DNA of 64,000 bases from Escherichia phage SF. The position numbers and the translations under genes were made by a program. The notes beneath the pieces were generated by a model. The model worked only from the letters and a program-made list of their open reading frames with translations. It did no database searches and was not told the DNA's origin. The stretch lies in the sequence record MH359124; one strand, 5' to 3'. Shown here piece by piece: positions 3,568 to 53,069 of the stretch. How positions within the stretch are numbered: the stretch's first letter is position 1; the number at the start of each line of letters is the position of its first letter.

Positions 3568-3748
3568 TATGGACTTGATGAGTATGTTTGATGAGCCTGA
3601 AGTTGAGGCTCCTAAAGTGCATCGTAGTGAACTTGTTGATGAACTAGATAGTATTATACAACGTCACGGCTTTAGTTTACCTGTTGAAGCCCTGAAAGAC
3701 CTTGCCTCTTATTATGACGACCCTCCACCATGGAGTCCTTGGAAATGA
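3560..3748 (+). CDS. hypothetical protein
   Basis: 62 aa, overlapping start with upstream stop. Confidence 0.4.
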   Translation: MNNMDLMSMFDEPEVEAPKVHRSELVDELDSIIQRHGFSLPVEALKDLASYYDDPPPWSPWK

Positions 3749-3964
3749 AAGAGAAATTTAAAGAGAAATTCTTACTAGAAATCAAGGAAAAAGACTTTGA
3801 GACATGGTATCGAATGGTGAAAGGGTTGACATTGCTTTTTAAAGCATCCTTATTCATGTTAGAACAACCTGGTCCTGATGGACCTTTAGTAGGAAAGCTT
3901 AAAAAGTAGTTTACATTCCCTCCTCTCGTGTTATGATAGGCTTATCTTTAAATGGAGGTCTATC

Positions 3965-4546
3965 ATGACATGTCAATCTGAACTTCAAGAACGCGAATAC
4001 CTAACAAATCTGATTGATAGCAAATTCACCCGCCAAGAACAAAACATTCTCTGGGCTTGCACAGATTCTAAGGAAGACCCGGATTTCCACTATGAATTAG
4101 ACCATCTTGTTCGTAAGCATATGACTTCTACAGTACCAGTAGAACTCTACCGCGGTGTAACTCCAGAAGAAGTAGAACGTCTTTCCCTTCTTTCTGTTGG
4201 ATGTCATTGGTCTCCTGGACGAGTAACATCATTCACAACTGATTTCAGTACAGCTCGTCAATTCTCCGGGAGTTGGGAGTATCAGACGTACACTATTCTT
4301 AGTCTCAGGAATGCTCCATTCATTTTTGATTACTACCAAAACATGGTTAACATTGTACTTGCCGGAAAGAACCCTAAGCATGTTATGGAAGAAACACGTG
4401 TTGACGTCCTAGATATGATTGAATCTGAACAAGAGTACATGGTCTCAGGTATCTCTAGATTTGAGATTGTGGAAATTGAAGACTTAGAATATGACCCTTT
4501 ATCTCAGTTATACAAAATCATTCATTTAAAAATGTTGAATTTTTAG
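3965..4546 (+). CDS. modB: ADP-ribosyltransferase, ModB-like (R-S-E class)
   Basis: 193 aa; YRG (Arg), TSFTT (STS), ESEQEYM (catalytic Glu) motifs; paralog of next gene; position as in T4 modB-modA-srd-dda. Confidence 0.7.
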   Translation: MTCQSELQEREYLTNLIDSKFTRQEQNILWACTDSKEDPDFHYELDHLVRKHMTSTVPVELYRGVTPEEVERLSLLSVGCHWSPGRVTSFTTDFSTARQFSGSWEYQTYTILSLRNAPFIFDYYQNMVNIVLAGKNPKHVMEETRVDVLDMIESEQEYMVSGISRFEIVEIEDLEYDPLSQLYKIIHLKMLNF

Positions 4547-4576
4547 TGTACAAACTCTTCCGACGATGATACTATA
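4546..4576 (+). promoter_or_regulatory. early-type promoter (GTGTAC -35 / TACTAT -10)
   Basis: GTGTAC, about 18 bp spacer, TGATACTAT; upstream of modA-like ORF. Confidence 0.4.
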
Positions 4577-4603
4577 CTTTTATCAACCACAGGAGAAACC
4601 TAA

Positions 4604-5212
4604 ATGTTTATGCCGTATAATGAATGTGAAATTGAGGAAATGGTTCGACGTGCTCAATGCCTGGATTATCAAGATATGCTTCAGTACAAAATCGATGAGC
4701 AATTCAGTGACATTGAACAAAGTGTACTATGGCAGTGTATGGAAAACAAGCCTGATAGCATCCAACAAGATTTAAGTGCAATCGTTCGTAGAAATTGGTC
4801 TTCTTCAGTTCCTGAGACAATGTATCGTGGAATCTCTAAGAAAACTATGGCCACACTCGATGATAAAGGCATTGGTAGTATTATTAAATTTGACAGAGTA
4901 ATGAGCTTCAGCCCAGTGTTCGGTGTAGCACGTAACTTTGCTTCATATAATTTTTACGGAACATTTAATATGTTCTGCATCAAAGATGCACCATTTGCTT
5001 TCAACTTCCGTGAACATATGCTTAATATGATTCTGGCTGCACCATCTTGCGAGTTCAATGGAGCTTTCCCTGAAGCGACAAGACGGTCTAATGCTAGACT
5101 TATATCTGACGAATGTGAATTTATGCTCCCTATAGGGACTACACTGCGTGTAGATTCTATTATTCAAGATGGACGTTATACAATCTGGAATCTGTCTATT
5201 GTCGGTTACTGA
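4604..5212 (+). CDS. modA: ADP-ribosyltransferase, ModA-like (R-S-E class)
   Basis: 202 aa; MYRG, MSFSP, SDECEFMLP motifs; paralogous to preceding ORF. Confidence 0.7.
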   Translation: MFMPYNECEIEEMVRRAQCLDYQDMLQYKIDEQFSDIEQSVLWQCMENKPDSIQQDLSAIVRRNWSSSVPETMYRGISKKTMATLDDKGIGSIIKFDRVMSFSPVFGVARNFASYNFYGTFNMFCIKDAPFAFNFREHMLNMILAAPSCEFNGAFPEATRRSNARLISDECEFMLPIGTTLRVDSIIQDGRYTIWNLSIVGY

Positions 5213-49016: not shown

Positions 49017-50102
<1,086 letters not shown>

Positions 50103-50103
<1 letters not shown>

Positions 50104-50782: not shown

Positions 50783-50820
50783 GTTTACAACACCGTAGAG
50801 TTGTGATACTATAACTCTAC
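50783..50820 (+). promoter_or_regulatory. early promoter with stem-loop (GTAGAGTT/AACTCTAC)
   Basis: GTTTAC at 50783; 8-bp inverted repeat around TGATACTAT. Confidence 0.5.
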
Positions 50821-50840: not shown

Positions 50841-51077
50841 ATGCTAAGTGAAAACCCAATTACAGTACACGAATTTCAGATTAAAGTAAAAGAATTTGCT
50901 CAAGCACTCATCAATAAAGTGTCTGAACGTTTCCAAGATGCAACATTACGAGTTATTCAAGAATCTCCACGTTCTTTTCTCATAATCGTTAATCCTAAAG
51001 ATGGTGACCAAATTACTAATCTTAAATTAGGCAGTGATGGTCTTGTTGAAGCAACTCGAGTATATGGAACACTATAA
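50841..51077 (+). CDS. hypothetical protein
   Basis: 78 aa. Confidence 0.45.
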   Translation: MLSENPITVHEFQIKVKEFAQALINKVSERFQDATLRVIQESPRSFLIIVNPKDGDQITNLKLGSDGLVEATRVYGTL

Positions 51078-51197
51078 TGAGAGCTATCTCATTACTATCG
51101 AGAATGGTCATAAATCTGAGCACTACCAACTTAGCCTGTCTAATCCGGTTAAAGGTATTGTTGAATCAGAATCTGTTTATATCTCCTAAGGATTGTT

Positions 51198-52190
51198 ATG
51201 TTACCTGTCGTCAGAAAACTTATTTCTCCAAAAGAACTGGCTGAGATTATTCCTTTGTCGGAAGCTTACGCATCACAAGTGGCTTCTCATCGCGAACAAG
51301 TTAATTCGATTATGAACGGTGAAGACCCACGCAAACTTATTGTTGTAGGTCCTTGTTCAATTCATGACCCTATTGCTGCTGTTGAATACGGCAAACGTCT
51401 GGCTGAACTTCAAACTCGTCTTCCTAATGTTCTGTTAGTGATGCGCGTTTATTTTGAAAAGCCTCGAACTACCGTAGGTTGGAAAGGTCTTGTAAATGAT
51501 CCATATCTTGACGGAAGTTTTGATATGAACCACGGTCTTATAGTTGCACGAACATTGTGTCGTAAACTTCTACGTATGGGACTTCCATTAGCAACTGAAG
51601 TATTAGACCCATTCACGATTAAGTATCTTTCTGGTATTTTCTCATGGGTTGCTATTGGCGCCCGTACGACTGAAAGTCAGACACATCGTGAAATTGCTTC
51701 AGGTCTACCGATGTGCGTAGGCTTCAAGAACGCAACCAATGGTTCTATTAAAGTAGCTACAGACGCGATGTATAGTGCCGCCTGGCCTCATCGGTATATG
51801 GGTATGGACGTCGATGGTACTGTAGGCATTGTTGAAGCTGAAGGTAATCAGAATACGCATATCGTATTGCGTGGCGGGACTAACGGCCCGAACTATCATT
51901 CTTCTGATATTCAAGAAGCTTCTAACAAAGCAAGTGCATTAGGTCTGAATCATTATGTAATGGTTGACTGTAGCCATGCAAACGCTGATGGGTATTATAG
52001 CAATCAAATTGGTATTGGTAAAAATTTAGCAGCTAATGATTTGGTCAAAGGAATTATGATAGAATCATTCCTACATGAAGGAAATCAAAAAATTTCTGAT
52101 AATATGTCCTATGGCGTTTCCATTACCGATGCGTGCATCAGTTGGGAACAAACTAAAGAGCTGTTAACTTATATTAATAAGGTTCAATAA
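51198..52190 (+). CDS. 3-deoxy-D-arabino-heptulosonate-7-phosphate (DAHP) synthase, class I (AroG/AroF-like)
   Basis: 330 aa; VVGPCSIHDP, VMRVYFEKPRTTVGWKGL, AIGARTTESQTHRE, DCSHAN, IMIESFLHEGNQ, SITDACISWE match the E. coli AroG catalytic/metal-binding regions; N-terminus shorter than AroG. Confidence 0.85.
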   Translation: MLPVVRKLISPKELAEIIPLSEAYASQVASHREQVNSIMNGEDPRKLIVVGPCSIHDPIAAVEYGKRLAELQTRLPNVLLVMRVYFEKPRTTVGWKGLVNDPYLDGSFDMNHGLIVARTLCRKLLRMGLPLATEVLDPFTIKYLSGIFSWVAIGARTTESQTHREIASGLPMCVGFKNATNGSIKVATDAMYSAAWPHRYMGMDVDGTVGIVEAEGNQNTHIVLRGGTNGPNYHSSDIQEASNKASALGLNHYVMVDCSHANADGYYSNQIGIGKNLAANDLVKGIMIESFLHEGNQKISDNMSYGVSITDACISWEQTKELLTYINKVQ

Positions 52191-52771
52191 TGAAAGCTAG
52201 CACATATCTTCAAATTGCTTATTTGATTTCTCAAGAATCAAAATGTTGTTCATGGAAAGTTGGTGCCGTCATTGAAAAAGATGGACGCATTATCTCTACT
52301 GGATATAATGGTTCACCGGCCGGTGGCGTTAACTGTTGTGAACATGCATCTGAAAATGGTTGGTTGAAGAATAAACCAAGCCCGGTCATCGTTGCTGGCC
52401 ATAAAGAAGGCACTACAGCATTTGGACGGGTAGATAATTTTGTTTTAGCTAAAGAACATCGGGCCGCTCATAGTGCATGGTCTGCTAATAATGAAATCCA
52501 TGCAGAATTGAATGCAATTTTGTTTGCAGCTCGTAAAGGTAATTCTATTGAAGGTGCTACGTTATATACGACGCTTTCTCCGTGTCCTGATTGCACTAAA
52601 GCTATTACGCAGTCAGGTATTAAAAAGGTTGTATACGCAGAATTATATGATCGATCTCCTGAAAATTGGGCAGACATTCTAAAACAAGCCGGTATTGAAG
52701 TAATTCAGTACTCTCGTAATAATCTTCGTTCTCTGAATTGGGAACAAATCCGAAACTTTTGTGGTGAATAA
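52190..52771 (+). CDS. cd: dCMP deaminase
   Basis: 193 aa; zinc-binding H.E and PCxxC motifs (CEHASENG...SPCPDCTKAI). Confidence 0.92.
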   Translation: MKASTYLQIAYLISQESKCCSWKVGAVIEKDGRIISTGYNGSPAGGVNCCEHASENGWLKNKPSPVIVAGHKEGTTAFGRVDNFVLAKEHRAAHSAWSANNEIHAELNAILFAARKGNSIEGATLYTTLSPCPDCTKAITQSGIKKVVYAELYDRSPENWADILKQAGIEVIQYSRNNLRSLNWEQIRNFCGE

Positions 52772-52772
52772 T

Positions 52773-53069
52773 ATGATTTTAACTGAACAAGAAACTATGG
52801 TTCTTCGTGAACGTATTAAAACTATTCTGTCTGTAGGCGTTCATTGTGTTGTATTTGAAAAGGCTAACGGCGAGGTACGCACTATGTTTGCTTCTCGCGA
52901 TGAACTTGAAGTCAAATATGAAAATAACAATCCAGCAACAGAAGTTCGTTATGAACCTCGTGAATCAGTTCGAGCATTCGACACCAAGTTAGGTCAGTGG
53001 CGTTCTTTCCGCCTTGATAAAGTAATTTCGGTTGATGGTACTCCGGTAGAACGTTTGCTTCTTATGTAA
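52773..53069 (+). CDS. hypothetical protein
   Basis: Start moved to ATG 52773; 98 aa. Confidence 0.5.
   Translation: MILTEQETMVLRERIKTILSVGVHCVVFEKANGEVRTMFASRDELEVKYENNNPATEVRYEPRESVRAFDTKLGQWRSFRLDKVISVDGTPVERLLLM

Follow-up and report, generated by a model that had tools for sequence, protein, structure and literature searches.

A type I-alpha DAHP synthase gene between pseT and cd of Escherichia phage SF: non-canonical inhibitor pocket, shortened N-terminus and import scar

The carriage by a virus of one rate-controlling enzyme of host type is exemplified by the cyanophage transaldolase gene talC and by the nucleotide-metabolism genes of phage T4. The logic of a phage-borne DAHP synthase (DAHPS) would be alike, with the host supplying the remainder of the pathway, but the pathway is a different one and the DAHPS case is drawn from sequence. 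The phage DAHPS gene itself is already known from databases and from at least two papers. The PHROG family phrog_5045, assigned to the auxiliary metabolic gene category, includes the enzymes of phages PHB12, HX01, CIP9, X20, PM2 and KLB31, and the Escherichia phage SF protein described here is a member of this family located in the same genomic slot. The KLB31 copy was named in 2025 as an auxiliary metabolic gene for aromatic amino acids, and within the same framing this entry enzyme was the sole amino-acid-related auxiliary gene reported in a related phage (PMC11845039). In the records and papers found there is no discussion of the truncated N-terminus, the regulatory site or the import scar, and a literature search for functional studies of a phage DAHP synthase gave nothing relevant.

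Three further groups of enzymes are close enough for comparison. The Escherichia coli isozymes AroF, AroG and AroH (6agm, 1kfl and 1qr7) have in common with the phage enzyme the fold and the metal, PEP and erythrose-4-phosphate (E4P) ligands, and engineered changes in the inhibitor pocket of DAHP synthases abolish inhibition in the laboratory (PMC9529685). The lineage of Aeromonas phage HJ05 (with P0121-P0123) also carries a phage-borne I-alpha enzyme, with 11/11 checked catalytic positions kept, but it is only about 37% identical to the phage SF protein, does not belong to a T4-like phage, lies in another genomic context and forms a separate lineage in neighbour-joining (NJ) trees.

Gene identity, active site and locus

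The window analysed is a stretch of 64,000 nt of the phage SF genome (MH359124). The open reading frame at 51198..52190 on the plus strand encodes 330 amino acids, and its ATG is the first start codon downstream of an in-frame stop. The first-pass annotation had read this frame as a complete DAHP synthase, and a profile search has confirmed it as a full-length type I-alpha enzyme, with matches far beyond chance to Pfam PF00793 (E=1.7e-74, 250.6 bits, cutoff 25.5), to the aroFGH equivalog model TIGR00034 (426.2 bits against a cutoff of 173.2, exceeded 2.5-fold) and to PRK12755 (454.2 bits, cutoff 343). The match to phrog_5045 (604.5 bits) spans residues 1-330 of the protein and positions 8-337 of the 341-position profile. 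Among the NCBIfam matches at E<=0.01 only DAHPS models were found and none of the KdsA-type (KDO8P synthase) family.

Among solved structures, the best sequence match is E. coli AroF (6agm, E=1.5e-104), and identities to AroF, AroG and AroH are 51, 48 and 44%, respectively. The scores with the AroG-specific model NF006723 (362 bits) and the AroH-specific model NF009396 (385 bits) lie under the respective cutoffs of 568 and 463. In NJ trees the phage sequences form a monophyletic clade apart from AroF, AroG and AroH, and the phage protein lacks the isozyme-clade placement implied by the label 'aroF, Tyr-sensitive' found in some GenBank records.

The five motifs listed previously (CSIHDP, KPRTT, DCSHAN, ESFLHEGNQ and DACISWE) are all present in the translation, and on alignment the Cys, His, Glu and Asp metal ligands are all kept: C53, H260, E289 and D311 correspond to AroG Cys61, His268, Glu302 and Asp326 and are invariant in 29/29 clade members. 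The PEP and E4P residues, including the KPRT motif (in AroG numbering R92, K97, P98, R99, T100, G163-A164-R165, K186 and R234), are identical in the phage SF protein and in the same 29 sequences, so that none of the 14 catalytic, metal and substrate ligands varies within the clade. The AF2 model (pLDDT 89.2, pTM 0.90) is a TIM barrel with a beta6a/6b hairpin insertion, the strands of which span residues 198-203 and 209-214, and a Foldseek comparison with AroG and with NmeDAH7PS of Neisseria meningitidis gave TM scores of 0.94-0.95 and rmsd values of 1.6-1.7. Judged by these residues, the protein is probably competent for the metal-dependent condensation of PEP and E4P, a judgement made jointly with the role in infection proposed below.

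The location between pseT and cd proposed in the first reading is supported by the Pfam matches of both neighbours. Upstream, pseT (polynucleotide kinase/phosphatase, 49204..50103, plus strand) matches HAD_PNKP with 198 bits and AAA_33 with 82 bits, and its product is 90% identical to RB69 PseT; downstream, cd (dCMP deaminase, 52190..52771, plus strand) matches dCMP_cyt_deam_1 with 92.6 bits, and its product is 96% identical to RB69 Cd. It is also correct that T4 has only small open reading frames here, namely cd.5, cd.4, cd.3, cd.2 and cd.1, and the DAHPS gene occupies the slot of cd.1. The resident cd.2 homologue (50841..51077, plus strand, 78 amino acids) matches DUF7320 with 121 bits and phrog_1504 with 129 bits, and is 96% identical to RB69 Cd.2. 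It is followed on the same strand by a leader of 120 nt, read from the sequence (51078..51197), which is identical to that of HX01 at 120/120 nt and is followed by the DAHPS ATG 5 nt after a Shine-Dalgarno-like AAGGA at 51188-51192.

A consensus scan revealed a T4-early-type promoter-like site in the cd.3/cd.2 gap (50783..50812, plus strand; GTTTACA, 17 nt and a TG-extended TACTAT). It is also conserved in RB69, and the T4 record has the early promoter Pe133295 annotated at the equivalent position; the number of promoter-like matches in the region (17) shows no excess over the 15.5 expected from shuffles. A promoter within the 120-nt leader was considered and rejected, none being found there, and the sole good site is the one upstream of cd.2. 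This site likely drives cd.2, a 41-amino-acid frame described below, DAHPS and cd, and DAHPS would thus probably be transcribed early and together with cd. The start codon of cd (ATG at 52190) and the TAA of DAHPS share 1 nt, which suggests that cd translation is possibly coupled to that of DAHPS. No matches were obtained in tRNA and Rfam scans of the 64-kb window.

Inhibitor pocket and N-terminus

Mutations at P150, Q151, S180 and F209 in AroG or its homologues lead to feedback resistance (PMC9529685, PMC10349828). In AroG itself, P150L, S180F and F209A/S confer feedback resistance, Gln151 also plays a part, and the main chain of the inhibitor is bound by S180/S181 (PMC9529685). The alignment of the feedback site with the host isozymes has revealed that other residues stand at these four positions across the phage clade (P150I, Q151K, S180P and F209Y in AroG numbering). 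The phage SF protein has I141, K142, P171 and Y200 at these positions, the canonical set being absent, and the clade has I150 in 28/29 members and K/R151, P180 and Y209 in 29/29 each. The 98 nearest bacterial relatives keep P, Q, S and F at 150, 151, 180 and 209 in 91, 98, 97 and 98 cases, respectively. Among 249 sequences I150, K/R151 and Y209 are confined to the phage clade, except for R151 in one unverified scaffold. A human-fecal 'Bacteriophage sp.' scaffold was left out as evidence because of its uncertain viral origin. Pro180 is also present in a bacterial subfamily (53/215 sequences), and therefore S180P by itself proves nothing; an initial view that S180 was invariant in bacteria was dropped when a second database search turned up this subfamily.

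The phage changes fall at the same pocket positions as those of engineered feedback-resistant enzymes (AroG P150L, S180F, F209A/S and D146N, AroF P148L and the Corynebacterium glutamicum AroF variants), but several are combined naturally, the residues introduced are others (I, K, P and Y) and D146 and the AroF-P148 equivalent are kept. In the laboratory, single mutations often cost activity or stability, as described in the literature for the Q151A and S180F equivalents of C. glutamicum AroF, whereas the phage set is maintained by selection.

The N-terminus had been described as about 10-15 residues shorter than that of AroG; it is indeed shorter, but by 8 residues with respect to AroG and 9 with respect to AroF. 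The phage clade has 16-20 residues before the reference column, compared to at least 23 in 213/215 bacterial sequences, and the remainder of the total length gap of 20-26 residues is due to a shorter C-terminus and to internal deletions (5 and 3 residues with respect to AroF, 5 and 2 with respect to AroG). The AroF changes N8K and delta-Ile11 bear on the role of this segment; a literature search on both gave nothing relevant. The N-terminal extension completes the inhibitor cavity of the adjacent subunit (PMC10349828). The replaced pocket residues, together with the short N-terminus, strengthen the earlier suggestion of a deregulated isozyme, and feedback insensitivity of the phage enzyme is plausible on this comparative basis.

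An ordinary feedback-regulated, Tyr-sensitive isozyme of AroF type, providing extra DAHPS capacity after the shut-off of host expression, is unlikely. AroF is the closest solved relative, at 51% identity, and D146, P147, L179 and the confidently modelled beta6a/6b hairpin are kept in the phage clade. Also, Gly, the Tyr-type state (PMC10349828), occupies the Ser/Gly specificity position (AroG 211) in 29/29 clade members. Against such an isozyme stand the replacement across the clade of Q151 and S180, which hold the inhibitor backbone, and of P150 and F209, the shortened N-terminal lid, the scores too low for the isozyme-specific NCBIfam models of AroG and AroH and the tree position outside all three host isozymes. 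AroG K214 (yeast Aro4 K229) was dropped as an extra marker because the position is variable even among canonical bacterial enzymes.

The replaced residues are themselves strictly conserved across the clade, and a functional, possibly ligand-binding pocket therefore fits better than simple decay. It is about an even chance that the pocket, with its I-K-P-Y set and shortened N-terminal lid, has been rebuilt and fixed in this form across at least five genera, giving either a constitutively active enzyme, stable in spite of changes that are damaging in laboratory mutants, or one rewired to a phage-relevant metabolite. The more specific proposal that the re-tuned I-K-P-Y pocket binds another effector, such as an anionic metabolite drawn by the Lys, with flux following a phage-relevant signal, is rather unlikely. 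The conservation of the substitutions (28-29 of 29) across genera that are 57-78% identical and the retention of a confidently modelled hairpin scaffold are consistent with it, and the product of the adjacent cd gene is an allosteric enzyme under the control of phage nucleotides, according to a note in the T4 record. However, the conservation may just as well be due to packing that keeps the enzyme locked in its active conformation, and the HJ05 pocket, also non-canonical and with a probably short N-terminus, carries different replacements (A150, H151, P180 and V209), which points to loss over a shared new specificity.

Import scar, distribution and selection

The leader region includes a frame of 41 amino acids (51064..51189, plus strand) that matches phrog_15876 over its full length and, weakly, positions 44-76 of phrog_1504; it is carried as an annotated CDS in SHSML-52-1 and AV116. 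Its product aligns with residues 45-81 of CIP9 Cd.2 (20/39 identical, z 11.4, 0/300 shuffles) and with other foreign Cd.2 proteins (PEi26, z 7.4; MY02, 18/33, z 8.6), compared to 10/33 and z 2.3 with the resident Cd.2 of phage SF. Judging from these alignments, the frame derives from the 3' half of a cd.2 allele of foreign, Kanagawavirus/Marfavirus-like, type, and this remnant shows that the cassette entered Mosigvirus from a different T4-like phage.

The right junction has an intact motif of cd.2/cd type, ATAATGAAAGCTAGCACATA (52187..52206, plus strand), overlapping the DAHPS stop, and the left junction has a degenerate cd.2-stop/cd-start motif, ATAATGAGAGCTATCTCATT (51074..51093, plus strand), matching the genuine cd start (52187) at 16/20 positions; the motif is single-copy in RB69. 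The 16/20 repeat is real and is probably the microhomology of the left crossover, but an interpretation of the leader as a mere duplicate of the cd start was set aside because the foreign cd.2 remnant explains it better. The recombination scar and the empty sites of RB69 type agree with the first-pass description of the gene as inserted. A recent capture from the host was rejected, since the identity to AroF (51%) does not exceed that to unrelated bacteria and the phage DAHPS clade contains no bacterial sequence. The cd.2 remnant is a clean example of accessory-gene movement among T4-like genera at a fixed locus.

The product is 100% identical to that of the annotated gene of Escherichia phage PHB12 (Mosigvirus) and 98.8% identical to HX01 gp250 (YP_010247097). 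An annotated copy of the gene is found in 211 phage records, all of them with one uninterrupted match over at least 80% of the query. The same slot is kept in at least five annotated T4-like genera, 57-78% identical overall, and in metagenomic T4-like contigs, on which the deepest unnamed clade members also sit; from these sequences, the lineage is confined to T4-like phages. In Mosigvirus the gene is found in about 93% of the sequenced genomes, about 11 records (~7%) being without it, and it is also absent from T4 and RB69.

This distribution bears on a role in sugar metabolism or DNA modification, either through condensation of PEP with arabinose-5-phosphate (a KDO8P-like reaction serving arabinosyl-hmC) or through a drain of E4P into pentose phosphates, which is very improbable. 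DAHPS is a homologue of KDO8PS. Arabinosyl-hmC is produced by Mosigviruses, whose genomes include a gene for an arabinose-5-phosphate isomerase (PMC6024577, PMC13326640), and several DAHPS-positive genera have the isomerase as well. Nevertheless, RB69 has both arabinosyl-hmC and the isomerase but no DAHPS, Acinetobacter phages include 57 isomerase-positive compared to 4 DAHPS-positive records, and Klebsiella phages include 25 DAHPS-positive compared to at most 3 isomerase-positive records. An obligate link to arabinosyl-hmC was rejected on this disagreement with the distribution of the RB69 gp55 isomerase. A KDO8P-synthase-like function was likewise rejected, the E4P-binding KPRT motif and all DAHPS ligands being intact and DAHPS models alone giving matches; DAHPS is not used in the published arabinosyl-hmC pathway, and the E4P sink is speculation.

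The phage DAHPS has been under long-term purifying selection, with dN/dS of 0.16 between CIP9 and PEi26 (Kanagawavirus, dS 0.62) and of 0.14-0.20 or less between genera. Within Mosigvirus the values range from 0.3 to 2.1 on at most 10 differences per pair and are hence uninformative, a recent relaxation being conceivable. A drifting passenger, functional in the donor lineage and now nearly neutral in Mosigvirus, is quite improbable. These within-genus values, the changes G41S and P231S of SHSML-52-1 at sites invariant in host isozymes and the absence of the gene from a minority of Mosigvirus records would be expected from it. The differences are few (4-8 nonsynonymous and 1-5 synonymous) and too recent to judge, whereas the match is full-length and uninterrupted in 211/211 records, the catalytic residues are all kept, purifying selection operates in Kanagawavirus and the cassette has spread to most sequenced Mosigvirus genomes.

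Proposed role in the infected cell and significance

The best explanation, which is considered probable with considerable room for doubt, is that the gene encodes a competent, feedback-insensitive type I-alpha enzyme that feeds the shikimate pathway in the infected cell. The host off-switch by Phe, Tyr or Trp would fail with the loss from the phage pocket of its inhibitor-holding residues, and the shortened N-terminal segment would correspond to the pocket lid normally supplied by the neighbouring subunit. Carbon flow into the pathway would be maintained whatever the aromatic amino acid levels and the TyrR/TrpR control, and downstream host enzymes would convert it into chorismate and then into Phe, Tyr and Trp, and perhaps also into cofactors derived from chorismate. 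The purpose is most likely the supply of aromatic amino acids or chorismate, and these products would serve a Tyr- and Phe-rich phage proteome. Aromatic residues account for 10.2% of the window-encoded proteins, compared to 7.6-7.8% in an E. coli sample, and the Tyr content is 1.5-1.7 times higher than in that sample, an argument that is equally valid for T4. However, T4, RB69 and the Mosigvirus records lacking DAHPS do well without the gene.

If confirmed, the rebuilt pocket would make the phage enzyme a regulatory variant that has so far gone unreported, and metabolic engineers would have a feedback-resistant enzyme ready for use. An enzyme that has escaped feedback control would also offer a template, of natural origin and tested by selection, for the DAHP synthases that engineers now mutagenize. 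The finding raises the question of why strictly lytic enterobacterial T4-like phages keep the entry enzyme of a costly seven-step pathway and, if feedback control has been escaped, the phage would clearly exemplify viral override of an allosteric checkpoint in amino acid metabolism by means of an unregulated isozyme.

Identity and distribution of the phage DAHP synthase

The open reading frame located at 51198..52190 (+ strand, 330 aa) was confirmed as a DAHP synthase (DAHPS) gene. It is full-length, as the first-pass annotation had proposed, and it lies between pseT (49204..50103) and cd (52190..52771; 582 nt, 193 aa), with its stop codon overlapping the cd ATG. The profile search recommended in that annotation gave a strong match to Pfam DAHP_synth_1 (E=1.7e-74, 250.6 bits), and the score against the NCBIfam aroFGH equivalog TIGR00034 was 426 bits (cutoff 173), with scores beneath both the AroG- and AroH-specific NCBIfam cutoffs. 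The protein is 51% identical to AroF, 48% to AroG and 44% to AroH, and the top solved structure by sequence was E. coli AroF (6agm; E=1.5e-104, query residues 7-327 on chain residues 16-344). A confident AlphaFold2 model (pLDDT 89.2, pTM 0.90) was superposed on AroG and on the enzyme of N. meningitidis with TM 0.94-0.95 and rmsd 1.6-1.7 Å. The pseT-cd interval of the T4 record contains cd.5, cd.4, cd.3, cd.2, cd.1 and nothing else, so the DAHPS gene occupies the cd.1 slot.

Over a 4.5-kb region, identity is 96-97% to many genomes of Mosigvirus (RB69-like), including PHB12, HX01, phiC120 and the BASEL phages. A tblastn search revealed the protein in 211 phage records, in each of which 80% or more of the query is matched without interruption: 138 records at 95% identity or more (100% in PHB12), 47 at 60-80% (Klebsiella, Serratia, Enterobacter, Edwardsiella and Erwinia phages) and 26 at lower identity (Proteus, Providencia and others). 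The identity of the gene is already known and catalogued, since most of these records name the product phospho-2-dehydro-3-deoxyheptonate aldolase or DAHP synthase I alpha, the family is listed in PHROGs as phrog_5045 (full-length match, 604 bits; category 'moron, auxiliary metabolic gene and host takeover'), the phiC120 genome paper names the domain in passing (PMC8022965), and a 2025 paper calls the DAHPS of Kanagawavirus KLB31 an auxiliary metabolic gene (AMG) and hypothesises a role in aromatic amino acid supply (PMC11845039). No functional study of a phage DAHPS was found in the literature searched. Some records label the gene 'aroF, Tyr-sensitive', which neither the isozyme-specific models nor the tree supports. 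Two neighbours also bear misleading names in public databases: the gp31.1 WYL_2/SH3-barrel protein (52761-53069) as 'tail fibers protein', and cd.2 of HX01 (3644-3880 of its locus) as 'olfactory receptor-like protein'.

Catalytic and feedback sites

The 14 metal, PEP and E4P ligands checked (C61, R92, K97, P98, R99, T100, G163, A164, R165, K186, R234, H268, E302 and D326, AroG numbering) are identical in this protein and in all 29 members of the phage clade. Alignment of the feedback site revealed that P150 is replaced by I in 28/29 members, Q151 by K/R, S180 by P and F209 by Y in 29/29, and P182 by C, T or A. Among the 98 nearest bacterial relatives, P150, Q151, S180 and F209 are kept in 91, 98, 97 and 98 sequences, respectively. 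In AroG, P150L or D146N confers full feedback resistance, S180F, F209A/S, L175D, L179A and V221A confer resistance too, Gln151 is involved in feedback, and the inhibitor main chain is bound by S180/S181 (PMC9529685). At the N-terminus, AroG/AroF have 8-9 more residues, and not 10-15 as first estimated; 16-20 residues precede the reference column in the phage clade, versus at least 23 in 213/215 bacterial sequences. In AroF, N8K and deletion of Ile11 affect Tyr sensitivity, an effect for which no literature source was found.

A second database search revealed a bacterial subfamily (53/215 sequences, many from Acinetobacter) with Pro at 180, Ala/Gly at 151 and a full-length N-terminus, in which S-P-T-[A/G]-P-S-F replaces the canonical pocket D-P-P-Q-S-P-F. 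Pro180 alone was therefore ruled out as a phage-specific marker. The full signature D-P-I-K-P-x-Y was found only in the phage clade among 249 sequences. Feedback deregulation, already suggested at first pass, is a reasonable reading that now has better residue-level evidence. The pocket replacements speak against a still-regulated AroF-like isozyme, which is disfavoured; given how strictly the replacements are conserved, the pocket may have been re-tuned to a new effector rather than inactivated.

The unrelated 79-kb Aeromonas phage HJ05 also encodes a DAHPS (3899-5062 of its locus, annotated 'hypothetical protein'), with about 37% identity and in a small clade of its own. It keeps 11/11 catalytic positions checked, and its pocket is non-canonical (A150, H151, P180, V209). 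As annotated, its first 65 nt lie within the upstream gene, and a relative (P0123) begins at the internal Met, which is probably the true start and would give a short N-terminus. This lineage is suggestive of a parallel loss of regulation, with a strict convergence argument weakened by the existence of bacterial P180-type enzymes.

Phage lineage and import into Mosigvirus

The protein database search returned a short-form clade (319-343 aa, at least 57% identity) followed by bacterial enzymes (341-385 aa, at most 55%). The 29 clade members were monophyletic in NJ trees, with every sampled bacterial sequence, the three host isozymes too, falling outside; no bacterial donor was visible among these. 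All named members are T4-like phages, and the two deepest unnamed ones sit on T4-like metagenomic contigs, one with the identical order rnlA-alc-spanins-pseT-ORF-DAHPS-cd-WYL_2. The pseT...DAHPS...cd slot is common to Mosigvirus, Marfavirus (MY02), Winklervirus (X20), Bragavirus (PM2) and Kanagawavirus (CIP9, PEi26). Identities to these orthologues are 78/67/68/59% for DAHPS, 84/79/71/65 for cd and 60/66/58/45 for pseT, with the same rank order reported for the three genes. Phage-only monophyly, the common slot and this ranking indicate that the lineage is old within T4-like phages. For CIP9 vs PEi26 dN/dS is 0.16 at dS 0.62, and between genera it is 0.14-0.20 or less, clear evidence of long-term purifying selection; this constraint and the intactness of the gene speak against a drifting passenger, which is disfavoured. 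Within Mosigvirus dN/dS is 0.3-2.1, from too few differences to be interpretable. In Proteus phage PM2 a homing endonuclease gene (2106-2822 of its locus) lies between pseT and DAHPS, so the interval is plastic.

In RB69, which lacks DAHPS, the stop codon of cd.2 directly overlaps the start of cd; such contiguous empty junctions were found in only 11 records, versus about 138 filled. Alignment of empty and filled sites gave an insert of 1113 bp (120-nt leader plus gene), with imperfect direct copies of the junction motif on either side (16/20 positions matching). The leader holds a 41-aa ORF (51064..51189) that overlaps the cd.2 end and leaves a gap of 8 nt to the DAHPS ATG; some records list it as a CDS, and it has its own PHROG family (phrog_15876). 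In the profile search it matched the cd.2 family weakly, over the C-terminal half. Compared directly, it resembles residues 45-81 of Cd.2 from CIP9 (20/39, z 11.4), MY02 (18/33, z 8.6) and PEi26 (z 7.4), and much less the Cd.2 of the same genome (10/33, z 2.3). In the genera of CIP9, PEi26 and MY02, cd.2 lies directly 5' of DAHPS. The ORF thus looks like what is left of a foreign cd.2 allele and not a gene with its own function. The Mosigvirus order is thus a complete resident cd.2, a foreign cd.2 reduced to its 3' half, and DAHPS: the cassette came in from another T4-like phage, with crossovers probably at the microhomology (left) and at the cd start (right). Import also explains why the cd.2-leader-DAHPS segment (50841-52190 vs HX01) is nearly invariant (99.5-100% nt, leader 120/120, dS 0.004-0.02) amid diverged flanks (pseT 90.5% nt, dS 0.25; cd dS 0.07). 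This mosaic is consistent with a recent import spreading by recombination and suggests a recent sweep of the segment; RB69-type empty sites may be the ancestral state or may have arisen by later deletion between the repeats. The cd of RB69 (NC_004928; 8743-9252 of its locus) is annotated with 169 aa ending ...ILKPSWY, versus 193 aa here and in T4, probably owing to a frameshift or a sequencing error close to the 3' end.

Expression and proposed role

A T4-early-type promoter-like site (50783-50812; GTTTACA, 17 nt, TG-extended TACTAT) lies between cd.3 and cd.2, is kept in RB69 and lies at the position of the annotated T4 early promoter Pe133295; an AAGGA Shine-Dalgarno-like sequence precedes the DAHPS ATG by 5 nt. 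Early co-expression with cd is inferred. No tRNA genes or Rfam gathering-level matches were present in the 64-kb window.

An obligate link to arabinosyl-hmC or other sugar chemistry was rejected: RB69 has the modification and an arabinose-5-phosphate isomerase without DAHPS, and the distributions of isomerase and DAHPS disagree in Acinetobacter and Klebsiella phages.

An AMG survey of a related phage reported no other aromatic-pathway gene (PMC11845039). The phage would contribute only the flux-controlling first enzyme, and therefore the later steps, from AroB to AroC and on into the branches, would have to be run by host enzymes. With an enzyme that does not respond to Phe, Tyr and Trp and does not depend on host transcription under TyrR/TrpR control, synthesis of chorismate and aromatic amino acids would continue after host shut-off. 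The proteins encoded in the window contain 10.2% F+Y+W and 4.2% Tyr, versus 7.6-7.8% and 2.5-2.75% in a sample of 50 kb from E. coli treated identically (about 1.3x and 1.5-1.7x), circumstantial support for such a supply role. T4 has a like composition yet no DAHPS. The benefit to the phage may come via amino acids, folate or quinone precursors, or by another route.
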